Origin: Mytilus edulis
Lineage: Eukaryota
NCBI RefSeq assembly: GCF_963676685.1
Contig: NC_092351.1
Location: forward strand, 78,244,001-78,308,000
Reading direction: 5' to 3'
DNA length: 64,000 nucleotides
Both the position numbers and the translations under genes were made by a program. Below are positions 38,306-56,079 of this stretch, one piece after another (the first letter of the stretch is position 1; each line of letters starts with the position of its first letter). The notes below the pieces were generated by a model. It saw only the letters and a list, made by a program, of their open reading frames with translations. It had not been told where the DNA came from and searched no databases.

Positions 38306-39245
38306 TAACAAAGCGTGCAGGAGATTTGAAGCGCATATATTAGTTGGTATTTAAAGTTTTTTTTTTTTTTTGTATTCTAAGGGACTTTCGTTTGTATCGT
38401 ACTTGTCTAGACAGTAACTAAAATTCGGATTAAAATCAGATTTCTTAAATTTCATATTTAAGTCCGTGTTCACGTTCACCTTACCTCGGTGTTGTGAGAA
38501 AGAGATTTACGATAAAACTCAATGTTTACATGTAGTTTAAATCATGTTTTGTCTACATGTAGTCGTCAATATTGCCCTTCCCCCCTTCTCCCCCTTCCCC
38601 CGATATAAATCAAATGGTAGCTCACTATAAGTACTGCAATCATCAAAATCGCATTCACAACTGTTAGAAAAGTCGACGACAAATTTGTGTTCGATTCTAT
38701 GTAATAAGCATTTTAAAAATGTTTTACAAGTGTGAACAAATCTCGTGTGCAGGCAATAACACAAGATGTATAGATAACGGACTGCAATAAATTTTGATAC
38801 TCTGCAATTTTCATTCTCAAAATGGATTGTTTTGAATCTTTGCAAATTGGCTAAAATTCTATGTTTTTTGCCTGAAATCTAGGAGTTTTAACAACTATAT
38901 CAAGTTGCATCATAACGGAAAATGAATTTCTTTTTGTTTAGAGAAATTGCATCAAACTTTTAAATACTACAGCTTAATTCAATTTTTCTTAGAAAAAAAA
39001 AGACAATTCTCAGCTACCTTCAAATTCTTCCTGCAATAACAAAAGAAAATAAATAATATAGATACTAATATTTTAGCATTCCCTTTTTCTAAGTCATATT
39101 GTACTTTTAAATTTATACAATAAACTAAATTTTTAGCTTTCTGAAATCTTACATTCAAAACTCAGGGCTAAATTTTTAGCTTTCAAAGATTTTCAATTTG
39201 TTATAATAAAACACCCATGCAACCACGCATCCCATATTGCTGATA

Positions 39246-39426
39246 GGACCCGACACAAATATCAATTTCGTGTTTCGGTAGTTAAGCTTGGGATGGTCAT
39301 TTTAAGATGCATTATTTGAATATAATCAAATATGAAAATTATTCATGTTTATATTGATATATTTATATTTTAATTCTTCTTCAATATATCTAGTTGTTAT
39401 GACAGATCTACCATCATCAGGGGTCC
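39246..39426 (-). ncRNA. Predicted type I hammerhead ribozyme (copy A1)
   Basis: Reverse complement of 44667-44847. Confidence 0.75.
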
Positions 39427-39437
39427 AACTGTCAATT

Positions 39438-41393
39438 TTATGTTACATTCTTTAACTTTGATCTACTAAGCATATCTCCAATACTTTTATGTTTGCTATA
39501 CGCAACTATTGGTGCTGTATTGAATATTTGTACACAGTCTTCGTCGAACTGTAATAAATGCCAGTGTTTCATTATACGTTTCTTTATTTTACGTATATAT
39601 GGATTATATTTAGTTATTAAAACTAACGGAATACTTTGCTTCTCTTTAGATTTGTTTTGTTGTAATAAATCAGTACGGTCAATTGATAAAGCATCAGTAA
39701 TACTATCATCTATTTCAGCGTTATCATAACCCCTATCTAATAATTTCACTTTGAAATTAGTTAGATTGTTTATTAATTTGTTATGGTCACTTGTATTTCT
39801 AATTTGCCGTATTGCTTCACCTTTAATAAATCCTCTGAATACATGCTGTGAGTGACAGCTATTTCTGTGCAGAAACAGATAAGAATTTGTTTCTTTAAAA
39901 TGTATTTCAAGGTCAAGGATGCCATATGTTGTAAATCGTTGACCTTTAATTACATCAACATCCAAGAACGACATTTTATCGTTTTTGATTTCATAGGTGA
40001 ACTTTAATAAGGGGTTATAATCATTTGCTAGACGAAAAAAATCTATAATTTCATCTGATGTTCCATCATATATTATGAATCCATCGTCTCTATATCTTCC
40101 ATGATAGAATATTTTGTCTTTATATTGAAATGCAGAAATAATTTGATTCATTATTTCAAACATAAGTATGTCACAGATTTCCGGTGAAGGAACTGCACCA
40201 ATTGCCGTACCTATTACTTGTTTGTAAATTTTCCCATCAAATTCAAATACATTGTTTTCTAAAATAATTCTCAACAAATGTATCAATACATTGACTGGCG
40301 GAGCATTGACTTTGAAGTTTGATTTGTCAAAACTGTCATATGCTCGTTCAACCGCACCCAATAACGCTTCTTGAGGTAGATTAGTAAACATCTGTGTTAT
40401 ATCATATGAAACCAAAAGGCTGTTTGCCATAGGTTTTAATTTCTCAATGATATTAATGAACGATGTAGTATCTTTTATATATGTAGACTGATTTTGAACT
40501 ATTGGTATAAGAAAATAGTCAACGTAATGACCTATAAGTTCAGTTACAGAACCACACTGTGATATAATTGGTCTGCCAGGTGGAATTATATTTAATTCAT
40601 TTAATCCATCATGTTGTATTTGTTTAAACGTCTCTGTTTCAAGACGGTGAATTTTTGGGAGAATATAAATTCTCCCTAATCGTGCATCTCTTAATTTTTG
40701 ACCATTTGTTAAAAATTTAAATGATATTTTGTCGATTATGCCTTGGTCGTATAATGATTTAATATACTCAATGACCTGGATTTTCAGTTCTGCCATGTTA
40801 AATGAATCTAATTGGCAGTAATGTTGAGTATTTAGTTGTCTTGTGACTTCTGTTATGTAGTCTAGCCTGTCTAAAATAACACAATTTGAATTTTTATCTG
40901 CCTTTTTTATTACTATTGTTTCATCATTTTTCAAATTGCGTAGCGCTATTCTTTCGCCCTTAGTAAGATTGTTTTTTACATTTCTTTCTATTGGTAGAAA
41001 AGACAATTCAAGCTTGGTTAAATCTATATAATTTTCCAACGTATGGCACGTAGAGGCAGGTTTATATCCTGTATTGCTACGAAATGGATGAAGGTCAGTT
41101 TTTTCTTGACTGAACATATACCGACATCGTAATTTTCTAGCAAATTCATTGTAGTCTTTTAGTATAGACATTTTTGAATTTTTGCTTGATGGCGTTGGTA
41201 TAAATTTCAAGCCTTTCGCCAACAGGATATATTCCTGATTTGATAATCTGCGTTTTGATAGATTAATAACATGCTTTTTTGCATGTGCAGTTCTTTGCTG
41301 CATATTGTATTTATTCCGTTCTTTTTTATTGTAGAATCGGAATTTTTGCTTTTTAGCATTTCTATTAAAACGACGTGCCATTTTTGAGTTCAC
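39438..41393 (-). CDS. Penelope-like reverse transcriptase, no GIY-YIG domain
   Basis: Motifs VINLS..LLAKGLKFIPTP, IKKADK, PPGRPIIS, A (SYDITQMFTNL), B' (QVIGTAIG), C (YRDD) and thumb, ending in PIVAYSKHKSIGDMLSRSKL. The probable true start is the ATG 4 codons in (MARRF). Confidence 0.92.
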   Translation of the reverse strand: MNSKMARRFNRNAKKQKFRFYNKKERNKYNMQQRTAHAKKHVINLSKRRLSNQEYILLAKGLKFIPTPSSKNSKMSILKDYNEFARKLRCRYMFSQEKTDLHPFRSNTGYKPASTCHTLENYIDLTKLELSFLPIERNVKNNLTKGERIALRNLKNDETIVIKKADKNSNCVILDRLDYITEVTRQLNTQHYCQLDSFNMAELKIQVIEYIKSLYDQGIIDKISFKFLTNGQKLRDARLGRIYILPKIHRLETETFKQIQHDGLNELNIIPPGRPIISQCGSVTELIGHYVDYFLIPIVQNQSTYIKDTTSFINIIEKLKPMANSLLVSYDITQMFTNLPQEALLGAVERAYDSFDKSNFKVNAPPVNVLIHLLRIILENNVFEFDGKIYKQVIGTAIGAVPSPEICDILMFEIMNQIISAFQYKDKIFYHGRYRDDGFIIYDGTSDEIIDFFRLANDYNPLLKFTYEIKNDKMSFLDVDVIKGQRFTTYGILDLEIHFKETNSYLFLHRNSCHSQHVFRGFIKGEAIRQIRNTSDHNKLINNLTNFKVKLLDRGYDNAEIDDSITDALSIDRTDLLQQNKSKEKQSIPLVLITKYNPYIRKIKKRIMKHWHLLQFDEDCVQIFNTAPIVAYSKHKSIGDMLSRSKLKNVT

Positions 41394-41811
41394 ATTGGGT
41401 GATTCTCTTAGCTACGTGCCTTTGTTGCGCTCACATTGGGTGGCTGAAGAATTTTTAGGTTTACACATGTTATAAACCTTGAAAGAAGATCCGCCCACAT
41501 TCACGTGGGTTGATAGGCGGGAATAAGATAGCAGTGAGAAATTGTCCGTGTTGATGATGTATAAATGAGTCACATTGTTTTGTGGAACTTTTCAAAGTAA
41601 ATCATGTCATGAAGTATTTTCAACTCAAGGCTAAAAGCTTTGTCCACCGGAACAATAAATTAACACCATATACGTATCCCATCAAACAGGAAATGCGGAT
41701 CATTCTCAATGCAGAAAACGATTCTCGGTAAGGTGCAGTAGGACAGCCGTCCATGAATACATTTTGTTATAATAAAACACCCATGCAACCACGCATCCCA
41801 TATTGCTGATA

Positions 41812-41992
41812 GGACCCGACACAAATATCAATTTCGTGTTTCGGTAGTTAAGCTTGGGATGGTCATTTTAAGATGCATTATTTGAATATAATCAAATATG
41901 AAAATTATTCATGTTTATATTGATATATTTATATTTTAATTCTTCTTCAATATATCTAGTTGTTATGACAGATCTACCATCATCAGGGGTCC
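41812..41992 (-). ncRNA. Predicted type I hammerhead ribozyme (copy A2)
   Basis: Same motif, one unit (2566 bp) from copy A1. Confidence 0.75.
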
Positions 41993-42003
41993 AACTGTCA
42001 ATT

Positions 42004-42501
42004 TTATGTTACATTCTTTAACTTTGATCTACTAAGCATATCTCCAATACTTTTATGTTTGCTATACGCAACTATTGGTGCTGTATTGAATATTTGTACA
42101 CAGTCTTCGTCGAACTGTAATAAATGCCAGTGTTTCATTATACGTTTCTTTATTTTACGTATATATGGATTATATTTAGTTATTAAAACTAACGGAATAC
42201 TTTGCTTCTCTTTAGATTTGTTTTGTTGTAATAAATCAGTACGGTCAATTGATAAAGCATCAGTAATACTATCATCTATTTCAGCGTTATCATAACCCCT
42301 ATCTAATAATTTCACTTTGAAATTAGTTAGATTGTTTATTAATTTGTTATGGTCACTTGTATTTCTAATTTGCCGTATTGCTTCACCTTTAATAAATCCT
42401 CTGAATACATGCTGTGAGTGACAGCTATTTCTGTGCAGAAACAGATAAGAATTTGTTTCTTTAAAATGTATTTCAAGGTCAAGGATGCCATATGTTGTAA
42501 A
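42004..42501 (-). pseudogene. 5'-truncated PLE RT (thumb region only)
   Basis: Identical to the C-terminal ~165 aa from FTTYGILD. The ORF-track N-terminus MSHIVLSSL comes from the inversion junction. Confidence 0.9.
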
Positions 42502-42699
42502 CAATGATGACAAAACAATGTGACTCATTTATACATCATCAACACGGACAATTTCTCACTGCTATCTTATTCCCGCCTATCAACCCACGTGAATGTGGGC
42601 GGATCTTCTTTCAAGGTTTATAACATGTGTAAACCTAAAAATTCTTCAGCCACCCAATGTGAGCTCAACAAAGGCACGTAGCTAAGAGAATCACCCAAT

Positions 42700-44655
42700 G
42701 TGAACTCAAAAATGGCACGTCGTTTTAATAGAAATGCTAAAAAGCAAAAATTCCGATTCTACAATAAAAAAGAACGGAATAAATACAATATGCAGCAAAG
42801 AACTGCACATGCAAAAAAGCATGTTATTAATCTATCAAAACGCAGATTATCAAATCAGGAATATATCCTGTTGGCGAAAGGCTTGAAATTTATACCAACG
42901 CCATCAAGCAAAAATGCAAAAATGTCTATACTAAAAGACTACAATGAATTTGCTAGAAAATTACGATGTCGGTATATGTTCAGTCAAGAAAAAACTGACC
43001 TTCATCCATTTCGTAGCAATACAGGATATAAACCTGCCTCTACGTGCCATACGTTGGAAAATTATATAGATTTAACCAAGCTTGAATTGTCTTTTCTACC
43101 AATAGAAAGAAATGTAAAAAACAATCTTACTAAGGGCGAAAGAATAGCGCTACGCAATTTGAAAAATGATGAAACAATAGTAATAAAAAAGGCAGATAAA
43201 AATTCAAATTGTGTTATTTTAGACAGGCTAGACTACATAACAGAAGTCACAAGACAACTAAATACTCAACATTACTGCCAATTAGATTCATTTAACATGG
43301 CAGAACTGAAAATCCAGGTCATTGAGTATATTAAATCATTATACGACCAAGGCATAATCGACAAAATATCATTTAAATTTTTAACAAATGGTCAAAAATT
43401 AAGAGATGCACGATTAGGGAGAATTTATATTCTCCCAAAAATTCACCGTCTTGAAACAGAGACGTTTAAACAAATACAACATGATGGATTAAATGAATTA
43501 AATATAATTCCACCTGGCAGACCAATTATATCACAGTGTGGTTCTGTAACTGAACTTATAGGTCATTACGTTGACTATTTTCTTATACCAATAGTTCAAA
43601 ATCAGTCTACATATATAAAAGATACTACATCGTTCATTAATATCATTGAGAAATTAAAACCTATGGCAAACAGCCTTTTGGTTTCATATGATATAACACA
43701 GATGTTTACTAATCTACCTCAAGAAGCGTTATTGGGTGCGGTTGAACGAGCATATGACAGTTTTGACAAATCAAACTTCAAAGTCAATGCTCCGCCAGTC
43801 AATGTATTGATACATTTGTTGAGAATTATTTTAGAAAACAATGTATTTGAATTTGATGGGAAAATTTACAAACAAGTAATAGGTACGGCAATTGGTGCAG
43901 TTCCTTCACCGGAAATCTGTGACATACTTATGTTTGAAATAATGAATCAAATTATTTCTGCATTTCAATATAAAGACAAAATATTCTATCATGGAAGATA
44001 TAGAGACGATGGATTCATAATATATGATGGAACATCAGATGAAATTATAGATTTTTTTCGTCTAGCAAATGATTATAACCCCTTATTAAAGTTCACCTAT
44101 GAAATCAAAAACGATAAAATGTCGTTCTTGGATGTTGATGTAATTAAAGGTCAACGATTTACAACATATGGCATCCTTGACCTTGAAATACATTTTAAAG
44201 AAACAAATTCTTATCTGTTTCTGCACAGAAATAGCTGTCACTCACAGCATGTATTCAGAGGATTTATTAAAGGTGAAGCAATACGGCAAATTAGAAATAC
44301 AAGTGACCATAACAAATTAATAAACAATCTAACTAATTTCAAAGTGAAATTATTAGATAGGGGTTATGATAACGCTGAAATAGATGATAGTATTACTGAT
44401 GCTTTATCAATTGACCGTACTGATTTATTACAACAAAACAAATCTAAAGAGAAGCAAAGTATTCCGTTAGTTTTAATAACTAAATATAATCCATATATAC
44501 GTAAAACAAAGAAACGTATAATGAAACACTGGCATTTATTACAGTTCGACGAAGACTGTGTACAAATATTCAATACAGCACCAATAGTTGCGTATAGCAA
44601 ACATAAAAGTATTGGAGATATGCTTAGTAGATCAAAGTTAAAGAATGTAACATAA
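42700..44655 (+). CDS. Penelope-like RT, EN-less (RKTKK variant)
   Basis: Intact 651-codon ORF with the motifs listed above. Confidence 0.92.
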   Translation: MNSKMARRFNRNAKKQKFRFYNKKERNKYNMQQRTAHAKKHVINLSKRRLSNQEYILLAKGLKFIPTPSSKNAKMSILKDYNEFARKLRCRYMFSQEKTDLHPFRSNTGYKPASTCHTLENYIDLTKLELSFLPIERNVKNNLTKGERIALRNLKNDETIVIKKADKNSNCVILDRLDYITEVTRQLNTQHYCQLDSFNMAELKIQVIEYIKSLYDQGIIDKISFKFLTNGQKLRDARLGRIYILPKIHRLETETFKQIQHDGLNELNIIPPGRPIISQCGSVTELIGHYVDYFLIPIVQNQSTYIKDTTSFINIIEKLKPMANSLLVSYDITQMFTNLPQEALLGAVERAYDSFDKSNFKVNAPPVNVLIHLLRIILENNVFEFDGKIYKQVIGTAIGAVPSPEICDILMFEIMNQIISAFQYKDKIFYHGRYRDDGFIIYDGTSDEIIDFFRLANDYNPLLKFTYEIKNDKMSFLDVDVIKGQRFTTYGILDLEIHFKETNSYLFLHRNSCHSQHVFRGFIKGEAIRQIRNTSDHNKLINNLTNFKVKLLDRGYDNAEIDDSITDALSIDRTDLLQQNKSKEKQSIPLVLITKYNPYIRKTKKRIMKHWHLLQFDEDCVQIFNTAPIVAYSKHKSIGDMLSRSKLKNVT

Positions 44656-44666
44656 AATTGACAGTT

Positions 44667-44847
44667 GGACCCCTGATGATGGTAGATCTGTCATAACAAC
44701 TAGATATATTGAAGAAGAATTAAAATATAAATATATCAATATAAACATGAATAATTTTCATATTTGATTATATTCAAATAATGCATCTTAAAATGACCAT
44801 CCCAAGCTTAACTACCGAAACACGAAATTGATATTTGTGTCGGGTCC
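44667..44847 (+). ncRNA. Predicted type I hammerhead ribozyme with a 126-nt insertion in stem II
   Basis: Stem I GGACCC(44667)/GGGTCC(44842); core CTGATGA(44673); stem II GGTAG(44681)/CTACC(44812); GAAA(44817); stem III ACAC-AAAT/ATTT-GTGT; GUC cleavage triplet ending at 44841. Confidence 0.78.
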
Positions 44848-45265
44848 TATCAGCAATATGGGATGCGTGGTTGCATGGGTGTTTTATTATAACAAAATGT
44901 ATTCATGGACGGCTGTCCTACTGCACCTTACCGAGAATCGTTTTCTGCATTGAGAATGATCCGCATTTCCTGTTTGATGGGATACGTATATGGTGTTAAT
45001 TTATTGTTCCGGTGGACAAAGCTTTTAGCCTTGAGTTGAAAATACTTCATGACATGATTTACTTTGAAAAGTTCCACAAAACAATGTGACTCATTTATAC
45101 ATCATCAACACGGACAATTTCTCACTGCTATCTTATTCCCGCCTATCAACCCACGTGAATGTGGGCGGATCTTCTTTCAAGGTTTATAACATGTGTAAAC
45201 CTAAAAATTCTTCAGCCACCCAATGTGAGCTCAACAAAGGCACGTAGCTAAGAGAATCACCCAAT

Positions 45266-47221
45266 GTGAACTCAAAAATGGCACGTCGTTTTAATAGAAA
45301 TGCTAAAAAGCAAAAATTCCGATTCTACAATAAAAAAGAACGGAATAAATACAATATGCAGCAAAGAACTGCACATGCAAAAAAGCATGTTATTAATCTA
45401 TCAAAACGCAGATTATCAAATCAGGAATATATCCTGTTGGCGAAAGGCTTGAAATTTATACCAACGCCATCAAGCAAAAATGCAAAAATGTCTATACTAA
45501 AAGACTACAATGAATTTGCTAGAAAATTACGATGTCGGTATATGTTCAGTCAAGAAAAAACTGACCTTCATCCATTTCGTAGCAATACAGGATATAAACC
45601 TGCCTCTACGTGCCATACGTTGGAAAATTATATAGATTTAACCAAGCTTGAATTGTCTTTTCTACCAATAGAAAGAAATGTAAAAAACAATCTTACTAAG
45701 GGCGAAAGAATAGCGCTACGCAATTTGAAAAATGATGAAACAATAGTAATAAAAAAGGCAGATAAAAATTCAAATTGTGTTATTTTAGACAGGCTAGACT
45801 ACATAACAGAAGTCACAAGACAACTAAATACTCAACATTACTGCCAATTAGATTCATTTAACATGGCAGAACTGAAAATCCAGGTCATTGAGTATATTAA
45901 ATCATTATACGACCAAGGCATAATCGACAAAATATCATTTAAATTTTTAACAAATGGTCAAAAATTAAGAGATGCACGATTAGGGAGAATTTATATTCTC
46001 CCAAAAATTCACCGTCTTGAAACAGAGACGTTTAAACAAATACAACATGATGGATTAAATGAATTAAATATAATTCCACCTGGCAGACCAATTATATCAC
46101 AGTGTGGTTCTGTAACTGAACTTATAGGTCATTACGTTGACTATTTTCTTATACCAATAGTTCAAAATCAGTCTACATATATAAAAGATACTACATCGTT
46201 CATTAATATCATTGAGAAATTAAAACCTATGGCAAACAGCCTTTTGGTTTCATATGATATAACACAGATGTTTACTAATCTACCTCAAGAAGCGTTATTG
46301 GGTGCGGTTGAACGAGCATATGACAGTTTTGACAAATCAAACTTCAAAGTCAATGCTCCGCCAGTCAATGTATTGATACATTTGTTGAGAATTATTTTAG
46401 AAAACAATGTATTTGAATTTGATGGGAAAATTTACAAACAAGTAATAGGTACGGCAATTGGTGCAGTTCCTTCACCGGAAATCTGTGACATACTTATGTT
46501 TGAAATAATGAATCAAATTATTTCTGCATTTCAATATAAAGACAAAATATTCTATCATGGAAGATATAGAGACGATGGATTCATAATATATGATGGAACA
46601 TCAGATGAAATTATAGATTTTTTTCGTCTAGCAAATGATTATAACCCCTTATTAAAGTTCACCTATGAAATCAAAAACGATAAAATGTCGTTCTTGGATG
46701 TTGATGTAATTAAAGGTCAACGATTTACAACATATGGCATCCTTGACCTTGAAATACATTTTAAAGAAACAAATTCTTATCTGTTTCTGCACAGAAATAG
46801 CTGTCACTCACAGCATGTATTCAGAGGATTTATTAAAGGTGAAGCAATACGGCAAATTAGAAATACAAGTGACCATAACAAATTAATAAACAATCTAACT
46901 AATTTCAAAGTGAAATTATTAGATAGGGGTTATGATAACGCTGAAATAGATGATAGTATTACTGATGCTTTATCAATTGACCGTACTGATTTATTACAAC
47001 AAAACAAATCTAAAGAGAAGCAAAGTATTCCGTTAGTTTTAATAACTAAATATAATCCATATATACGTAAAACAAAGAAACGTATAATGAAACACTGGCA
47101 TTTATTACAGTTCGACGAAGACTGTGTACAAATATTCAATACAGCACCAATAGTTGCGTATAGCAAACATAAAAGTATTGGAGATATGCTTAGTAGATCA
47201 AAGTTAAAGAATGTAACATAA
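45266..47221 (+). CDS. Penelope-like RT, EN-less (RKTKK variant)
   Basis: Intact ORF identical in translation to 42700-44655. Confidence 0.92.
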   Translation: MNSKMARRFNRNAKKQKFRFYNKKERNKYNMQQRTAHAKKHVINLSKRRLSNQEYILLAKGLKFIPTPSSKNAKMSILKDYNEFARKLRCRYMFSQEKTDLHPFRSNTGYKPASTCHTLENYIDLTKLELSFLPIERNVKNNLTKGERIALRNLKNDETIVIKKADKNSNCVILDRLDYITEVTRQLNTQHYCQLDSFNMAELKIQVIEYIKSLYDQGIIDKISFKFLTNGQKLRDARLGRIYILPKIHRLETETFKQIQHDGLNELNIIPPGRPIISQCGSVTELIGHYVDYFLIPIVQNQSTYIKDTTSFINIIEKLKPMANSLLVSYDITQMFTNLPQEALLGAVERAYDSFDKSNFKVNAPPVNVLIHLLRIILENNVFEFDGKIYKQVIGTAIGAVPSPEICDILMFEIMNQIISAFQYKDKIFYHGRYRDDGFIIYDGTSDEIIDFFRLANDYNPLLKFTYEIKNDKMSFLDVDVIKGQRFTTYGILDLEIHFKETNSYLFLHRNSCHSQHVFRGFIKGEAIRQIRNTSDHNKLINNLTNFKVKLLDRGYDNAEIDDSITDALSIDRTDLLQQNKSKEKQSIPLVLITKYNPYIRKTKKRIMKHWHLLQFDEDCVQIFNTAPIVAYSKHKSIGDMLSRSKLKNVT

Positions 47222-47232
47222 AATTGACAGTT

Positions 47233-47413
47233 GGACCCCTGATGATGGTAGATCTGTCATAACAACTAGATATATTGAAGAAGAATTAAAATATAAATAT
47301 ATCAATATAAACATGAATAATTTTCATATTTGATTATATTCAAATAATGCATCTTAAAATGACCATCCCAAGCTTAACTACCGAAACACGAAATTGATAT
47401 TTGTGTCGGGTCC
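47233..47413 (+). ncRNA. Predicted type I hammerhead ribozyme (copy C)
   Basis: Same motif as 44667-44847. Confidence 0.75.
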
Positions 47414-47463
47414 TATCAGCAATATGGGATGCGTGGTTGCATGGGTGTTTTATTATAACAAAA

Positions 47464-48994
47464 TCTTACTAAGGGCGAAAGAATAGCGCTACGCAATTTG
47501 AAAAATGATGAAACAATAGTAATAAAAAAGGCAGATAAAAATTCAAATTGTGTTATTTTAGACAGGCTAGACTACATAACAGAAGTCACAAGACAACTAA
47601 ATACTCAACATTACTGCCAATTAGATTCATTTAACATGGCAGAACTGAAAATCCAGGTCATTGAGTATATTAAATCATTATACGACCAAGGCATAATCGA
47701 CAAAATATCATTTAAATTTTTAACAAATGGTCAAAAATTAAGAGATGCACGATTAGGGAGAATTTATATTCTCCCAAAAATTCACCGTCTTGAAACAGAG
47801 ACGTTTAAACAAATACAACATGATGGATTAAATGAATTAAATATAATTCCACCTGGCAGACCAATTATATCACAGTGTGGTTCTGTAACTGAACTTATAG
47901 GTCATTACGTTGACTATTTTCTTATACCAATAGTTCAAAATCAGTCTACATATATAAAAGATACTACATCGTTCATTAATATCATTGAGAAATTAAAACC
48001 TATGGCAAACAGCCTTTTGGTTTCATATGATATAACACAGATGTTTACTAATCTACCTCAAGAAGCGTTATTGGGTGCGGTTGAACGAGCATATGACAGT
48101 TTTGACAAATCAAACTTCAAAGTCAATGCTCCGCCAGTCAATGTATTGATACATTTGTTGAGAATTATTTTAGAAAACAATGTATTTGAATTTGATGGGA
48201 AAATTTACAAACAAGTAATAGGTACGGCAATTGGTGCAGTTCCTTCACCGGAAATCTGTGACATACTTATGTTTGAAATAATGAATCAAATTATTTCTGC
48301 ATTTCAATATAAAGACAAAATATTCTATCATGGAAGATATAGAGACGATGGATTCATAATATATGATGGAACATCAGATGAAATTATAGATTTTTTTCGT
48401 CTAGCAAATGATTATAACCCCTTATTAAAGTTCACCTATGAAATCAAAAACGATAAAATGTCGTTCTTGGATGTTGATGTAATTAAAGGTCAACGATTTA
48501 CAACATATGGCATCCTTGACCTTGAAATACATTTTAAAGAAACAAATTCTTATCTGTTTCTGCACAGAAATAGCTGTCACTCACAGCATGTATTCAGAGG
48601 ATTTATTAAAGGTGAAGCAATACGGCAAATTAGAAATACAAGTGACCATAACAAATTAATAAACAATCTAACTAATTTCAAAGTGAAATTATTAGATAGG
48701 GGTTATGATAACGCTGAAATAGATGATAGTATTACTGATGCTTTATCAATTGACCGTACTGATTTATTACAACAAAACAAATCTAAAGAGAAGCAAAGTA
48801 TTCCGTTAGTTTTAATAACTAAATATAATCCATATATACGTAAAATAAAGAAACGTATAATGAAACACTGGCATTTATTACAGTTCGACGAAGACTGTGT
48901 ACAAATATTCAATACAGCACCAATAGTTGCGTATAGCAAACATAAAAGTATTGGAGATATGCTTAGTAGATCAAAGTTAAAGAATGTAACATAA
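47464..48994 (+). pseudogene. 5'-truncated PLE RT (lacks first ~143 codons)
   Basis: Begins at TCTTACTAAGGGCGAA directly after the 3' end of the previous unit. Confidence 0.9.
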
Positions 48995-49005
48995 AATTGA
49001 CAGTT

Positions 49006-49186
49006 GGACCCCTGATGATGGTAGATCTGTCATAACAACTAGATATATTGAAGAAGAATTAAAATATAAATATATCAATATAAACATGAATAATTTTCAT
49101 ATTTGATTATATTCAAATAATGCATCTTAAAATGACCATCCCAAGCTTAACTACCGAAACACGAAATTGATATTTGTGTCGGGTCC
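49006..49186 (+). ncRNA. Predicted type I hammerhead ribozyme (copy D)
   Basis: Same motif as 44667-44847. Confidence 0.75.
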
Positions 49187-49480
49187 TATCAGCAATATGG
49201 GATGCGTGGTTGCATGGGTGTTTTATTATAACAAAGCTTTTAGCCTTGAGTTGAAAATACTTCATGACATGATTTACTTTGAAAAGTTCCACAAAACAAT
49301 GTGACTCATTTATACATCATCAACACGGACAATTTCTCACTGCTATCTTATTCCCGCCTATCAACCCACGTGAATGTGGGCGGATCTTCTTTCAAGGTTT
49401 ATAACATGTGTAAACCTAAAAATTCTTCAGCCACCCAATGTGAGCTCAACAAAGGCACGTAGCTAAGAGAATCACCCAAT

Positions 49481-51436
49481 GTGAACTCAAAAATGGCACG
49501 TCGTTTTAATAGAAATGCTAAAAAGCAAAAATTCCGATTCTACAATAAAAAAGAACGGAATAAATACAATATGCAGCAAAGAACTGCACATGCAAAAAAG
49601 CATGTTATTAATCTATCAAAACGCAGATTATCAAATCAGGAATATATCCTGTTGGCGAAAGGCTTGAAATTTATACCAACGCCATCAAGCAAAAATGCAA
49701 AAATGTCTATACTAAAAGACTACAATGAATTTGCTAGAAAATTACGATGTCGGTATATGTTCAGTCAAGAAAAAACTGACCTTCATCCATTTCGTAGCAA
49801 TACAGGATATAAACCTGCCTCTACGTGCCATACGTTGGAAAATTATATAGATTTAACCAAGCTTGAATTGTCTTTTCTACCAATAGAAAGAAATGTAAAA
49901 AACAATCTTACTAAGGGCGAAAGAATAGCGCTACGCAATTTGAAAAATGATGAAACAATAGTAATAAAAAAGGCAGATAAAAATTCAAATTGTGTTATTT
50001 TAGACAGGCTAGACTACATAACAGAAGTCACAAGACAACTAAATACTCAACATTACTGCCAATTAGATTCATTTAACATGGCAGAACTGAAAATCCAGGT
50101 CATTGAGTATATTAAATCATTATACGACCAAGGCATAATCGACAAAATATCATTTAAATTTTTAACAAATGGTCAAAAATTAAGAGATGCACGATTAGGG
50201 AGAATTTATATTCTCCCAAAAATTCACCGTCTTGAAACAGAGACGTTTAAACAAATACAACATGATGGATTAAATGAATTAAATATAATTCCACCTGGCA
50301 GACCAATTATATCACAGTGTGGTTCTGTAACTGAACTTATAGGTCATTACGTTGACTATTTTCTTATACCAATAGTTCAAAATCAGTCTACATATATAAA
50401 AGATACTACATCGTTCATTAATATCATTGAGAAATTAAAACCTATGGCAAACAGCCTTTTGGTTTCATATGATATAACACAGATGTTTACTAATCTACCT
50501 CAAGAAGCGTTATTGGGTGCGGTTGAACGAGCATATGACAGTTTTGACAAATCAAACTTCAAAGTCAATGCTCCGCCAGTCAATGTATTGATACATTTGT
50601 TGAGAATTATTTTAGAAAACAATGTATTTGAATTTGATGGGAAAATTTACAAACAAGTAATAGGTACGGCAATTGGTGCAGTTCCTTCACCGGAAATCTG
50701 TGACATACTTATGTTTGAAATAATGAATCAAATTATTTCTGCATTTCAATATAAAGACAAAATATTCTATCATGGAAGATATAGAGACGATGGATTCATA
50801 ATATATGATGGAACATCAGATGAAATTATAGATTTTTTTCGTCTAGCAAATGATTATAACCCCTTATTAAAGTTCACCTATGAAATCAAAAACGATAAAA
50901 TGTCGTTCTTGGATGTTGATGTAATTAAAGGTCAACGATTTACAACATATGGCATCCTTGACCTTGAAATACATTTTAAAGAAACAAATTCTTATCTGTT
51001 TCTGCACAGAAATAGCTGTCACTCACAGCATGTATTCAGAGGATTTATTAAAGGTGAAGCAATACGGCAAATTAGAAATACAAGTGACCATAACAAATTA
51101 ATAAACAATCTAACTAATTTCAAAGTGAAATTATTAGATAGGGGTTATGATAACGCTGAAATAGATGATAGTATTACTGATGCTTTATCAATTGACCGTA
51201 CTGATTTATTACAACAAAACAAATCTAAAGAGAAGCAAAGTATTCCGTTAGTTTTAATAACTAAATATAATCCATATATACGTAAAATAAAGAAACGTAT
51301 AATGAAACACTGGCATTTATTACAGTTCGACGAAGACTGTGTACAAATATTCAATACAGCACCAATAGTTGCGTATAGCAAACATAAAAGTATTGGAGAT
51401 ATGCTTAGTAGATCAAAGTTAAAGAATGTAACATAA
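49481..51436 (+). CDS. Penelope-like RT, EN-less
   Basis: Intact ORF. Confidence 0.92.
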   Translation: MNSKMARRFNRNAKKQKFRFYNKKERNKYNMQQRTAHAKKHVINLSKRRLSNQEYILLAKGLKFIPTPSSKNAKMSILKDYNEFARKLRCRYMFSQEKTDLHPFRSNTGYKPASTCHTLENYIDLTKLELSFLPIERNVKNNLTKGERIALRNLKNDETIVIKKADKNSNCVILDRLDYITEVTRQLNTQHYCQLDSFNMAELKIQVIEYIKSLYDQGIIDKISFKFLTNGQKLRDARLGRIYILPKIHRLETETFKQIQHDGLNELNIIPPGRPIISQCGSVTELIGHYVDYFLIPIVQNQSTYIKDTTSFINIIEKLKPMANSLLVSYDITQMFTNLPQEALLGAVERAYDSFDKSNFKVNAPPVNVLIHLLRIILENNVFEFDGKIYKQVIGTAIGAVPSPEICDILMFEIMNQIISAFQYKDKIFYHGRYRDDGFIIYDGTSDEIIDFFRLANDYNPLLKFTYEIKNDKMSFLDVDVIKGQRFTTYGILDLEIHFKETNSYLFLHRNSCHSQHVFRGFIKGEAIRQIRNTSDHNKLINNLTNFKVKLLDRGYDNAEIDDSITDALSIDRTDLLQQNKSKEKQSIPLVLITKYNPYIRKIKKRIMKHWHLLQFDEDCVQIFNTAPIVAYSKHKSIGDMLSRSKLKNVT

Positions 51437-51447
51437 AATTGACAGTT

Positions 51448-51628
51448 GGACCCCTGATGATGGTAGATCTGTCATAACAACTAGATATATTGAAGAAGAA
51501 TTAAAATATAAATATATCAATATAAACATGAATAATTTTCATATTTGATTATATTCAAATAATGCATCTTAAAATGACCATCCCAAGCTTAACTACCGAA
51601 ACACGAAATTGATATTTGTGTCGGGTCC
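51448..51628 (+). ncRNA. Predicted type I hammerhead ribozyme (copy E)
   Basis: Same motif as 44667-44847. Confidence 0.75.
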
Positions 51629-52046
51629 TATCAGCAATATGGGATGCGTGGTTGCATGGGTGTTTTATTATAACAAAATGTATTCATGGACGGCTGTCCT
51701 ACTGCACCTTACCGAGAATCGTTTTCTGCATTGAGAATGATCCGCATTTCCTGTTTGATGGGATACGTATATGGTGTTAATTTATTGTTCCGGTGGACAA
51801 AGCTTTTAGCCTTGAGTTGAAAATACTTCATGACATGATTTACTTTGAAAAGTTCCACAAAACAATGTGACTCATTTATACATCATCAACACGGACAATT
51901 TCTCACTGCTATCTTATTCCCGCCTATCAACCCACGTGAATGTGGGCGGATCTTCTTTCAAGGTTTATAACATGTGTAAACCTAAAAATTCTTCAGCCAC
52001 CCAATGTGAGCTCAACAAAGGCACGTAGCTAAGAGAATCACCCAAT

Positions 52047-54002
52047 GTGAACTCAAAAATGGCACGTCGTTTTAATAGAAATGCTAAAAAGCAAAAATTC
52101 CGATTCTACAATAAAAAAGAACGGAATAAATACAATATGCAGCAAAGAACTGCACATGCAAAAAAGCATGTTATTAATCTATCAAAACGCAGATTATCAA
52201 ATCAGGAATATATCCTGTTGGCGAAAGGCTTGAAATTTATACCAACGCCATCAAGCAAAAATGCAAAAATGTCTATACTAAAAGACTACAATGAATTTGC
52301 TAGAAAATTACGATGTCGGTATATGTTCAGTCAAGAAAAAACTGACCTTCATCCATTTCGTAGCAATACAGGATATAAACCTGCCTCTACGTGCCATACG
52401 TTGGAAAATTATATAGATTTAACCAAGCTTGAATTGTCTTTTCTACCAATAGAAAGAAATGTAAAAAACAATCTTACTAAGGGCGAAAGAATAGCGCTAC
52501 GCAATTTGAAAAATGATGAAACAATAGTAATAAAAAAGGCAGATAAAAATTCAAATTGTGTTATTTTAGACAGGCTAGACTACATAACAGAAGTCACAAG
52601 ACAACTAAATACTCAACATTACTGCCAATTAGATTCATTTAACATGGCAGAACTGAAAATCCAGGTCATTGAGTATATTAAATCATTATACGACCAAGGC
52701 ATAATCGACAAAATATCATTTAAATTTTTAACAAATGGTCAAAAATTAAGAGATGCACGATTAGGGAGAATTTATATTCTCCCAAAAATTCACCGTCTTG
52801 AAACAGAGACGTTTAAACAAATACAACATGATGGATTAAATGAATTAAATATAATTCCACCTGGCAGACCAATTATATCACAGTGTGGTTCTGTAACTGA
52901 ACTTATAGGTCATTACGTTGACTATTTTCTTATACCAATAGTTCAAAATCAGTCTACATATATAAAAGATACTACATCGTTCATTAATATCATTGAGAAA
53001 TTAAAACCTATGGCAAACAGCCTTTTGGTTTCATATGATATAACACAGATGTTTACTAATCTACCTCAAGAAGCGTTATTGGGTGCGGTTGAACGAGCAT
53101 ATGACAGTTTTGACAAATCAAACTTCAAAGTCAATGCTCCGCCAGTCAATGTATTGATACATTTGTTGAGAATTATTTTAGAAAACAATGTATTTGAATT
53201 TGATGGGAAAATTTACAAACAAGTAATAGGTACGGCAATTGGTGCAGTTCCTTCACCGGAAATCTGTGACATACTTATGTTTGAAATAATGAATCAAATT
53301 ATTTCTGCATTTCAATATAAAGACAAAATATTCTATCATGGAAGATATAGAGACGATGGATTCATAATATATGATGGAACATCAGATGAAATTATAGATT
53401 TTTTTCGTCTAGCAAATGATTATAACCCCTTATTAAAGTTCACCTATGAAATCAAAAACGATAAAATGTCGTTCTTGGATGTTGATGTAATTAAAGGTCA
53501 ACGATTTACAACATATGGCATCCTTGACCTTGAAATACATTTTAAAGAAACAAATTCTTATCTGTTTCTGCACAGAAATAGCTGTCACTCACAGCATGTA
53601 TTCAGAGGATTTATTAAAGGTGAAGCAATACGGCAAATTAGAAATACAAGTGACCATAACAAATTAATAAACAATCTAACTAATTTCAAAGTGAAATTAT
53701 TAGATAGGGGTTATGATAACGCTGAAATAGATGATAGTATTACTGATGCTTTATCAATTGACCGTACTGATTTATTACAACAAAACAAATCTAAAGAGAA
53801 GCAAAGTATTCCGTTAGTTTTAATAACTAAATATAATCCATATATACGTAAAATAAAGAAACGTATAATGAAACACTGGCATTTATTACAGTTCGACGAA
53901 GACTGTGTACAAATATTCAATACAGCACCAATAGTTGCGTATAGCAAACATAAAAGTATTGGAGATATGCTTAGTAGATCAAAGTTAAAGAATGTAACAT
54001 AA
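52047..54002 (+). CDS. Penelope-like RT, EN-less
   Basis: Intact ORF. Confidence 0.92.
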   Translation: MNSKMARRFNRNAKKQKFRFYNKKERNKYNMQQRTAHAKKHVINLSKRRLSNQEYILLAKGLKFIPTPSSKNAKMSILKDYNEFARKLRCRYMFSQEKTDLHPFRSNTGYKPASTCHTLENYIDLTKLELSFLPIERNVKNNLTKGERIALRNLKNDETIVIKKADKNSNCVILDRLDYITEVTRQLNTQHYCQLDSFNMAELKIQVIEYIKSLYDQGIIDKISFKFLTNGQKLRDARLGRIYILPKIHRLETETFKQIQHDGLNELNIIPPGRPIISQCGSVTELIGHYVDYFLIPIVQNQSTYIKDTTSFINIIEKLKPMANSLLVSYDITQMFTNLPQEALLGAVERAYDSFDKSNFKVNAPPVNVLIHLLRIILENNVFEFDGKIYKQVIGTAIGAVPSPEICDILMFEIMNQIISAFQYKDKIFYHGRYRDDGFIIYDGTSDEIIDFFRLANDYNPLLKFTYEIKNDKMSFLDVDVIKGQRFTTYGILDLEIHFKETNSYLFLHRNSCHSQHVFRGFIKGEAIRQIRNTSDHNKLINNLTNFKVKLLDRGYDNAEIDDSITDALSIDRTDLLQQNKSKEKQSIPLVLITKYNPYIRKIKKRIMKHWHLLQFDEDCVQIFNTAPIVAYSKHKSIGDMLSRSKLKNVT

Positions 54003-54013
54003 AATTGACAGTT

Positions 54014-54194
54014 GGACCCCTGATGATGGTAGATCTGTCATAACAACTAGATATATTGAAGAAGAATTAAAATATAAATATATCAATATAAACATGAATA
54101 ATTTTCATATTTGATTATATTCAAATAATGCATCTTAAAATGACCATCCCAAGCTTAACTACCGAAACACGAAATTGATATTTGTGTCGGGTCC
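54014..54194 (+). ncRNA. Predicted type I hammerhead ribozyme (copy F)
   Basis: Same motif as 44667-44847. Confidence 0.75.
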
Positions 54195-56079
54195 TATCAG
54201 CAATATGGGATGCGTGGTTGCATGGGTGTTTTATTATAACAAAATAAAATTTTAGCCGTAAGAGTTTTGAATTAAAATTTCTGTAGGCTAAAAATTTAGT
54301 TTTAATATATAAATTTATTGTGTATTATATATGAAAAGGGAATGCTAAAGTTGTAGCAAACATGTTATGTCTTTTCTTTTTATTGCAGGATGATACTAAA
54401 CCAGTTCGGAATTGTTTTTTCTTGTTTCTTTTATAGATAAATTGTATTCAGCTGAATTATTAAAAAGCTGAATGCAGTTTCTCTGGCACAAAAGAAATTA
54501 AGGTTTTTCAACATAGATGCGAATTGTTTCTCTTGATGAAATGGTTATTTAAAAAGATATATGTAAGTAATCATACATTAAATTCAAAACACAGGTTTTT
54601 AGCGAAAAAACATAGATTTTTAGCCATTTTGCAATGATTCAAAACAATCCATTTTGAGAATGAAAATTGCAGAGTATCAATATTTATTGCAGTCCGTTAG
54701 ATGTAAAAAAAAAATAAGTAAAACCAGTGTCCATAACATTAAACTAATGGCAAACATGTTTACTGTACATGGCGTTTGGTGTGAACACGGCCTTCTATAG
54801 AAGCTTAACATGCATGCAATGTTTACAGTGCAGTTGTGTATGAAACAAACAACAGTTGGAAGCTGCCCAAATTGTGTATATTAAAAAACAAAATATGGGA
54901 AGAACAAGCAAGTCAAATTTAAAACATAAATCAAAGCGCGAATGCGCTGTAAAGGTAATTATCTACATGTCTTGCGATTTGATAGTCTAGATTGTTTATA
55001 ATCAAACATATTTAATGGATTATACAGAGAAAAAGAACAAAAGGTAGTTAATTTTTCTAATGGTAGAGTAAAAAAAGTCAATACTGAAACAATGCTGGCG
55101 ACGATACGATTTCCAAATTGTAATAATTATTGTTCATTTTAAAGAATTTTGTGGCTGAACTTTTTTATTAGAAATATACGTGCAAATACAATAATGTTTT
55201 ATGTTCAATATTTAGTAAATTTACAGTTTTCGACTAAGATATATATATATCGACAAAAAAAGTGGAAAACAATCAGTAACATACAAATAATGCATACACA
55301 TCTAAGATCTGTCAGGTCCCTTATTATAGAAGAGTTTCACAAAATCATTACATGTAGCATGCTACAAGTTCCCAAAGCATACATTTTTCTTTCAACCCAA
55401 AGTTGACGAGCACACCGGTCTGCTTTTCTCACCATCATATTCAATAGAGAAATATTGTCTTTTCTCGAAAATAATAAAACTAAACTGTGTTTCTATGTTT
55501 GTGTAAGTTAAGAAATCAAAGATAGAAGGTCGTTTTATATTTCTACAATTTGGAATCAATTTTTACAAAAGTTCAACTCGATTTTTGTACATGTATTTGC
55601 GGTCTTTTCGGTCTATTTATATTCAATGTTTACATATCAAGACAATGTTCCGTTAAAATGTGCGTAGTATATCAATTGATTCGCTTAGAATCCCACTGAC
55701 TTTCCCTGGTATAGCTGTATTTTGCACGTTCTAGTAAGGTATACAGCCCGTAGAATAACATAAATTAGTGAAATATAAAGTTAGAACTCACGGAATGTAT
55801 TCTGAAAGCAACATTCTCTAATTTTTGTACTATTTCTACATTTCCTGAGCGGTGTGAGAAAAATATTTCCCCTCACTAGTGAAAAAACTGTTCTCGGCAA
55901 ATGATTAGTCGAATTTGATTATAACGTCTAAATGTTTTGTTTTCTTCTGAATTTTCCTATTGTGACGTCATGAAAAAAGGCGACAATGCCTGATGACATC
56001 GCATATAAAGACCACAAGTTTCTGAAAATCTTTGAAAAAGAACGATAAAAAGCATTAGCGAAACAGATTCCGACACTGT

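Follow-up and report, generated by a model that had tools for sequence, protein, structure and literature searches.

Hammerhead ribozymes of Penelope-like elements (PLEs) are described as mostly of type I with a very short stem III (review PMC6765202), and their role in these elements is an open question: the known animal motifs are reported to cut poorly (PMC4209133), and a reconstituted PLE of Anolis is described as ribozyme-independent in vitro, ribozyme mutants having no effect on insertion and no RNA-seq ends being reported at the cut (PMC11167929). A tandem and inverted repeat layout has been described for PLEs (PMC8557442). PLE clades without an endonuclease (EN) are given in the available text of a 2026 preprint as Athena and Coprina only (10.64898/2026.07.22.740005), and occasional loss of EN inside EN-bearing (EN+) clades is described, e.g. 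in the Neptune-like, EN-less MjPLE01 of shrimp (PMC8557442). A base-paired contact between stem I and stem II is reported for all three hammerhead types and is needed for fast cleavage (PMC3088659). The survey of bivalve TEs in PMC10294476 is described as excluding PLEs. Here we analyze a window of 64,000 nucleotides of the Mytilus edulis genome (the whole stretch of DNA under study; positions are those of the window). It contains a type I hammerhead motif where the units of a young EN-less PLE meet; the motif is likely active as a monomeric ribozyme that cuts after C44841, with a predicted 6-bp contact (pseudoknot 1) and a loop II that is probably mostly filler.

The hammerhead belongs to an insertion built from 2566-bp units that are more than 99.7% identical to one another, with 3' ends pointing outward at both borders:

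39194..54245, tandem part on the forward strand and inverted part on the reverse strand: whole insertion of 2566-bp units, with seven hammerhead copies
44673, 47239, 49012, 51454 and 54020 on the forward strand, 41986 and 39420 on the reverse strand: hammerhead cores, read from the sequence
42712..44655, forward strand: upstream RT-only ORF of 647 aa, stop 12 nt before stem I, no GIY-YIG profile match in six frames
45278..47221, forward strand: following RT-only ORF in the tandem, with an intact YRDD catalytic motif

The preliminary description had assigned the hammerhead to a PLE, and this is borne out by the PLE-type RT ORF, by the tandem and inverted array with its fixed 3' ends, and by partial, 5'-truncated tandem or inverted insertions that carry a hammerhead at the repeat. 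Copies are scattered over many large contigs, away from the contig ends and between flanks that are not telomeric, and are not attached to telomeres in the manner of Athena and Coprina; with a 2566-nt unit and a 647-aa ORF, the element is not the short non-coding unit of a retrozyme either. No ORF1 remnant was detected in the spacer of the window's family. The flanks of the array (39074-39194 and 54245-54365) are alike in inverted orientation, as if the array had landed in the middle of an inverted repeat with imperfect arms. These similar inverted flanks, taken with the outward 3' ends at the two borders, fit extension of both ends of a DNA break. Runs of N lie at 5232-5369 and 6390-6525, far from the hammerhead.

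The 647-aa protein is 100% identical to a Mytilus edulis entry, terminates straight after the thumb, shows a weak match to RVT_1 (E = 2 × 10−4, below the Pfam cut-off) and is 27-31% identical over about 600 aa to RT-GIY-YIG ORFs. Its homologues number 833 among 7998 scored candidates; among the 120 homologues listed, 77 are 600-720 aa long (median 645), and pearl oyster, rock oysters and scallop are among the sources named. A profile built from the GIY-YIG tails of related elements, which matched the EN+ control, found no six-frame match in the window or in 19 family loci and matched a single one of the 120 listed homologues, P0107, a protein closer to EN+ ORFs (39-41%) than to the 647-aa protein (32%). 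An endonuclease hidden in another frame was rejected for want of any six-frame profile match; a spliced or trans-acting one may exist. The nearest EN-bearing relatives carry a Cys linker and GIY-YIG, i.e. the Neptune-type layout, a label that rests on the description in PMC8557442; the 647-aa ORF has no such C-terminal Cys linker and GIY-YIG endonuclease. In a FastTree phylogeny of 46 rows, which was built without named references (Coprina and Athena RTs are absent), left out 36 rows that were mostly partial or unclassified metagenome ORFs, and was midpoint-rooted for drawing only, the RT-only rows (29 of 46) fall on one side of a branch with support 100. Judged by its sequence, the 647-aa protein is a member of a well-supported RT-only clade of mussels and oysters that adjoins Neptune-type elements; this EN-less clade comprises more than a dozen families in one genome.

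As read from the sequence, the hammerhead is of type I, with CUGANGA, GAAA and NUH core elements, three flanking helices of which stem I is open, stems I, II and III of 6, 5 and 7 bp, a 126-nt loop II and a predicted cut after C44841. Its parts, with evidence beyond the sequence where there is any, are:

44659..44664, forward strand: pseudoknot 1, 5' strand TGACAG, pairing with 44688-44693; likely stem I-stem II tertiary contact
44667..44672, forward strand: stem I, 5' strand GGACCC
44673..44680, forward strand: core CTGATGA (CUGAUGA) from 44673 and one extra T/U at 44680
44681..44685, forward strand: stem II, 5' strand GGTAG; U-A to C-G double change in 13/48 family copies
44686..44811, forward strand: loop II insert of 126 nt, variable, with an AT-rich middle
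44688..44693, forward strand: pseudoknot 1, 3' strand CTGTCA, from sequence and family comparison
44705-44743, forward strand: weak hairpin 1, arms TATATTGA from 44705 and TCAATATA from 44736
44747-44761, forward strand: weak hairpin 2, arms ATGAA from 44747 and TTCAT from 44757
44762-44779, forward strand: weak hairpin 3, arms ATTTGA from 44762 and TCAAAT from 44774
44783..44804, forward strand: distal loop II segment, 7-bp core CATCCCA at 44798-44804; can pair with the 3' flank, putative clamp or off-switch
44812..44820, forward strand: stem II, 3' strand CTACC from 44812, and core GAAA from 44817
44821..44839, forward strand: stem III, a stable hairpin of 6 bp and A15.1-U16.1 with a loop of 7 nt; its pairs have probabilities of 0.86-0.98 in every fold
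44839..44842, forward strand: GUC cleavage triplet (44839-44841) and predicted cut C44841/G44842 (+1), from core geometry and genomic segments starting at +1
44842..44847, forward strand: stem I, 3' strand GGGTCC
44859..44882, forward strand: 3' flank partner of distal loop II, 7-bp core TGGGATG at 44859-44865

Every hammerhead string of the preliminary description was found at the position given for it, and the insert (44686-44811) has the 126 nt claimed. The extra core nucleotide, which sits between positions 9 and 10.1, had been singled out as unusual, but PMC4209133 already gives such a nucleotide as a conserved feature of PLE hammerheads; comparison of families shows that some sister families have it and others do not. 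The stable stem III hairpin allows a monomeric hammerhead fold, and the motif is not of the minimal dimeric PLE kind, in which stem III is absent or a 1-2 bp palindrome and loop II is short. The core helices covary, as seen in the stem II double change and in stems I to III that differ between families; among family copies, the least conserved part of the ribozyme is loop III (0.79).

With both strands searched, a descriptor that admits long loops gave exactly 7 matches, the seven copies, in the 64-kb window and 0 over 100 windows of the same size made by Markov resampling, so that the hammerhead exceeds chance. Rfam yielded no match at gathering score anywhere in the window; none of its hammerhead families reached E ≤ 10 within 44600-45300, and 15 sister loci were likewise without a match, as had been anticipated from the supposition that standard descriptors would miss the motif. 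This silence is what is expected for long loop insertions and says nothing on the reality of the motif.

Divergent families were obtained by protein searches of the same genome, their loci were scanned for hammerheads, and 18 families were compared, drawn from this genome, one metagenome locus of another organism (L082) and two junction fragments. They comprise 10 type I and 8 type III hammerheads; five of the type III folds, those with a short stem II, were recognised by eye, and the type III families found by the descriptor have a loop I of 50-81 nt. Long inserts occur in loop I, II or III of the sister families, with a loop III of about 40-80 nt in four type I families. The U3-A8 core variant is present in three families (seen in L192, L193 and L196), and in L192, L193, L195 and L196 a type I hammerhead with this variant and a 43-59-nt loop III stands directly after the RT stop codon. 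The six type III families included in the tree form one subclade (support 94); in the type III loci of one PLE subclade (L036, L061-L065, L067 and L078) the pseudoknot occupies the same position as in type I. The switch between type I and type III is apparently a natural circular permutation within one element clade. No hammerhead was found in the L197 family. Across families only 37-50% identical in protein, the hammerhead motif and pseudoknot 1 are kept.

Seven sister families also carry, upstream of RT, a second, mutually homologous ORF of 207-266 codons, helical and with a basic tail, which gave no Pfam match above the cut-off and no usable atlas match; the window's family is without it. 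The loci are:

L039:109-906 (reverse strand), L074:4417-5157, L072:1906-2628, L068:5907-6527 (reverse strand), L071:6222-6908, L082:664-1392, L193:497-1159: second ORF

Head-to-tail repeats of about 190-300 bp of the L036-family ribozyme, beginning at its +1, were observed in L044, L047 and L052 and resemble nascent retrozymes.

Pseudoknot 1 was assessed in the 18 families by seeking the best helix between the 12 nt that precede stem I and the initial 14 nt of loop II. The mean best helix is 5.2 bp when both strands come from the same family and 3.5 bp when they come from different families, and the observed helix length or energy was matched in 0/20,000 permutations. A helix of at least 4 bp in register was found in 13/18 families, at the same position in type I and type III, and was not found in the other 5/18. 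The paired strands differ between families (TGACAG/CTGTCA, ATATAGG/CCTATAT, ATTTATTGG/CCAATAAAT, TACTGC/GCAGTA, ACGTGG/CCACGT and CAAGGC/GCCTTG), and the TGACAG/CTGTCA pseudoknot suggested in the preliminary description is thus upheld by covariation across families. Because the families share ancestry, these cases amount to fewer than 18 independent events. These sequence comparisons support a tertiary contact between stem I and stem II through pseudoknot 1.

The ends of genomic copies bear on the use of the predicted cut in vivo. An exact 22-nt probe (+8 to +29) gave 49 matches in the genome, from which upstream tracing produced 40 segments; 37 were kept after removal of one at a locus edge and two duplicates. 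Four of the 37, in three loci, start at +1 or +2, compared to 0.06-0.14 expected from the background stop rate (p = 4 × 10−7 to 1 × 10−5, or 3 × 10−5 to 4 × 10−4 if counted as three). With a looser probe (136 matches, of which 100 were listed), 40 new regions with 45 matches were examined: starts at +1 to +4 were found in 8/45 (6 after duplicate removal, all older fragments), 2 starts fell in the next 39 nt upstream, and 4/45 stop at +7 to +13. One older complete copy, L286, runs from exactly +1 round the full unit to +55. The same junctions were observed in sister families: in L202, a match to the L078 type III family starts at the first base after the cut site of that family; in L238, a piece of another type III family is joined at its own +1; and L036-family pieces are joined at their own +1 in L044 and L047 and at +2 in L242. 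Starts at +1/+2 in 4/37 segments and likewise in sister families suggest that the ribozyme likely cleaves in vivo, at C44841/G44842, i.e. at the cut that had been predicted. Stops that fall exactly on the scissile bond, in the type I and in the type III topology alike, are better explained by cleavage than by pausing at structure, although stops near +1 could in part reflect RT pausing at the G-C-rich stem I. In RNA-seq, a shallow sample (about 6% of the raw reads of each of three runs) provided 35, 62 and 69 reads, on both strands, with no pile-up of starts or ends, a depth that speaks neither for nor against cleavage or transcription of a full unit; one metatranscriptome contig spans the cut site.

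Pieces of different families are joined end to end in L202 (about 3670-4100), L238 (about 5330-5630), L241 and L256, and such mixed-family insertions suggest template jumping between families within one RT event. In a single older copy, L255:510-744, the cleavage junction contains four additional bases, which may stem from imprecise joining across the cut.

At the other end of the unit, the 3' ends of genomic copies are fixed:

44894..44902, forward strand: fixed 3' end of genomic copies (+53 to +61), putative internal RT start; 34/39 terminating copies

Of the copies that terminate downstream of the ribozyme, 34/39 end within this interval, which, by analogy with the internal start described for the Anolis element (PMC11167929), would place the start of RT at about +56. 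RT passages crossed the cut site in 42/46 cases. Of 28 loci that retain the 5' portion of the unit, 7 begin within +41 to +52 and 2 at +1. Four of the seven could be followed over one or two units to a 3' end at +55 to +57. Instead of being a sign of a circle, the starts within +41 to +52 could mark a transcription start. Three-unit tandems exist among the copies, and the junction of a ligated circle has the same sequence as a genomic tandem junction.

In the mechanism proposed here, read-through transcripts of the tandem would be cut into unit-length RNA, on which RT would start internally, about 56 nt downstream of the cut, and copy to +1. There it may run off, leaving short +1 to +56 pieces, or jump onto other RNAs; alternatively, it may cross from +1 to the 3' end of the unit, the ends being either ligated as a circle or held by stem I and by pairing between loop II and the 3' flank. 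After one round, RT would stop either at +1 or about 10-16 nt past its own start (+41 to +46), the latter being predicted if it meets its own cDNA on a template that is circular or joined at its ends. Lacking an endonuclease, the element would integrate at pre-existing DNA breaks or with a nuclease supplied in trans. The broadest form of this reading, possible but doubtful, is an undescribed, ancient EN-less PLE clade of marine invertebrates, in which monomeric hammerheads that cut fast, carry a pseudoknot and have changed between type I and type III during evolution make cut and end-clamped RNA, and in which RT starts about 56 nt inside, gives strong-stop-like cDNA, undergoes an LTR-like transfer across the cut and inserts at DNA breaks without a nuclease of its own.

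We favour ribozyme-cut RNA with ligated or held ends as the template, with uncut multimers as a live rival. According to the latter, the hammerhead is intact and its cleavage incidental, copying proceeds from uncut multimeric read-through RNA, and the +1 fragments are by-products of occasional cuts. Consistent with this possibility, most RT passages cross the site, three-unit tandems are known in the genome, the Anolis PLE is reported to use unprocessed RNA in vitro (PMC11167929), and Naiads are described as spreading without canonical hammerheads (PMC8557442). However, the retention of the motif and pseudoknot 1 at 37-50% protein identity, through the type I/type III permutation and the U3-A8 variant, and complete copies that start at +1 weigh against incidental cleavage, which we regard as possible but doubtful.

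With ribozyme-cut RNA as the favoured template, there remains the part played by the long loop II. It measures 126 nt here; the loops of the nine sister type I families are 22, 28, 30, 33, 37, 38, 40, 63 and 78 nt long and unrelated in sequence. Within the family, the insert is 93% conserved per column (48 copies), and its variants include a 27-nt deletion, a 21-nt insertion between the distal loop II segment and stem II, and a 7-nt deletion that takes the 5' arm of hairpin 2 in several loci, one of them with intact tandem ORFs; lengths of 99, 119 and about 147 nt were observed. Long loop II is probably mostly tolerated filler.

A second pseudoknot, CATCCCA/TGGGATG, had been proposed between loop II and the 3' flank. 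The comparisons made here did not bear it out: a helix of equal length (7 bp) arises in 151/300 shuffles; double changes were seen in 0/7 pairs among 48 distinct family copies, which are too alike for a strong covariation test; and helix length is above chance in none of the nine sister type I families. In L246, L247 and L248, which have TGGAATG, the pairing partner is kept or broken, never restored; a partner was sought in the diverged L184 family and not found; and the contigs of four further runs have variants in neither pseudoknot. The excess of covariation over shuffles in the structure as a whole comes mostly from one stem II pair and is probably one inherited event.

The extended, bulged duplex between loop II and the 3' flank reaches −22 to −25 kcal/mol (−24.6 kcal/mol in the comparison with shuffles, of which 11/300 attain it), and in a nested fold of the full region it wins by 12.5 kcal/mol, leaving stems I and II at a probability of 0.0; its dominance begins once the transcript passes +24. 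In a transcript that ends at +11, stem I has a probability of 0.98, stem III 0.95 and stem II 0.1, and the full core costs only 1.3 kcal/mol, pseudoknot 1 uncounted. Because the fold of the full region favours this helix, the RNA may often stay uncut, and a role as off-switch or end-clamp is conceivable. The insert would then be a functional RNA domain, the distal part of which pairs with the 3' flank, keeps most templates continuous and delivers the RT start, the ribozyme being self-attenuated. Beyond the energies, this agrees with both strands being intact in 39/48 copies, with the best loop II-flank helix starting at +17 to +19 in 5/10 type I families (a regularity noticed post hoc) and with the crossing of the cut site in 42/46 RT passages. 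The lack of compensatory change in the 48 copies (too similar for a strong test), helix lengths at chance in the nine sister type I families and the toleration of the 21-nt insertion between the distal segment and stem II argue in the opposite direction, and we consider such a domain rather unlikely.

Far less probable is that the motif is dead, misfolded by its insert, and that RT produced the +1 junctions by stalling where the RNA is structured: the nested MFE fold without stems I and II, some stops at +7 to +13 and three RNA-seq runs (35-69 reads each) with no pile-up at the cut would agree with it, but stops precisely at the scissile bond in both topologies, type I and type III, in which local structures differ, and the compensatory change in stem II do not.

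The AT-rich hairpins reported within the insert have their arms where they were said to be, but the insert folds no better than shuffles (z = −1.1; 73/500 shuffles equally good), shows no compensatory change in them, and has no counterpart of them in sister families. Hairpin 1 is fully intact in 17/48 copies, compared to 39-43/48 for the core stems and both pseudoknots, and hairpin 2 is gapped in 10/48. As a conserved structure the hairpins are rejected on the z value and the 17/48 count. The idea that the hairpins form an RT-binding scaffold draws on the 93% conservation per column and is otherwise highly improbable, since loop II ranges from 22 to 126 nt among the families compared (22-78 nt, of unrelated sequence, in the sisters), indels are tolerated, including the 7-nt deletion of the hairpin 2 arm in the locus with intact tandem ORFs, the hairpins fold and persist as poorly as stated, and the fixed end of the copies at about +56, the putative RT start, lies outside the insert.

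The literature searched contains no description of this clade or its ribozymes; nor does it report animal PLEs whose hammerheads are of type III or have a pseudoknot, or genomic junctions that coincide with the cut site of a PLE, although Repbase or the supplements of PMC8557442 and PMC4209133 may list such families. Each ingredient has precedent, namely PLE hammerheads, monomeric ones in EN-less PLEs of fungi and protists, occasional Neptune-like loss of EN, pseudoknot contacts and long loop insertions. The 126-nt insert is of less interest than the clade and the record left by the junctions: for several families, and for type I as well as type III, RNA ends at the scissile bond are preserved in the genome itself; the EN-less clade is widespread and non-telomeric; and its hammerheads form a set of PLE ribozymes invisible to Rfam, with long inserts in any of the three loops. 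Because the element is young and intact, with a single ORF in 2.6 kb and a defined RT start, it offers a direct test of the circle, jump and uncut-multimer models.

Among known systems, the metazoan PLE hammerheads (Cervera and de la Pena 2014, PMC4209133) are described, as found here, with type I motifs at the repeat boundary, tandem arrays and proposed circle-based copying, and share an extra nucleotide between 9 and 10.1, a G10.1-C11.1 pair and a U3-A8 variant. They are reported to be minimal and dimeric poor cutters with little or no stem III and no recognised tertiary contact, whereas in the mussel element stem III is stable, a pseudoknot is conserved and loop II spans 126 nt, and type III forms occur in its clade. 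The EN-deficient telomeric PLEs of fungi, protists and plants (Coprina and Athena; PMC4209133, PMC8557442) are, by their descriptions, similar in their EN-less RT, monomer-type hammerhead and large helix III, and the extra helical ORF upstream of RT in the sister families is a further likeness. However, Coprina and Athena are telomeric, whereas the mussel copies are dispersed inside chromosomes and the nearest EN-bearing relatives found are Neptune-type; for the hammerheads of fungal and protist EN-deficient PLEs, the available descriptions report no recognisable tertiary contact, in contrast to pseudoknot 1 here. Neptune-type EN+ PLEs, with an RT 27-31% identical, have the Cys linker and GIY-YIG that are both missing here, and the loss of EN marks a whole deep clade (support 100), to which the EN-less MjPLE01 may or may not belong.

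Pseudoknot-stabilised hammerheads (Perreault et al. 2011, PMC3088659) have, as here, a base-paired stem I-stem II contact of at least 4 bp; they come mainly from bacteria, phage and a few vertebrate introns, and the available text describes neither PLEs nor a 126-nt loop II. The discontinuous Clec2 hammerheads (PMC2950038) are described as active natural ribozymes with large loop insertions that evade standard patterns, activity here being predicted; that search addressed insertions in loop 1 or 3 in mRNA 3' UTRs, whereas here the insertion is in loop II of a retroelement. Mussel non-LTR retrozymes (PMC7229834; 10.64898/2026.07.22.740005) are likewise described as tandem repeats with one type I hammerhead per unit and a proposed circular RNA, but invertebrate retrozymes are 170-400 nt long and non-coding (PMC7229834), whereas the mussel PLE unit has 2566 nt and encodes RT. 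Finally, in the Poseidon element PAc of Anolis (PMC11167929), RT is described as starting internally downstream of the hammerhead, with fixed genomic 3' ends, as in the mussel element; PAc differs in having an endonuclease, a minimal, protein-assisted hammerhead and, in the available description, no in vivo ends at the cut, whereas in the mussel element genomic junctions map to the cut site.
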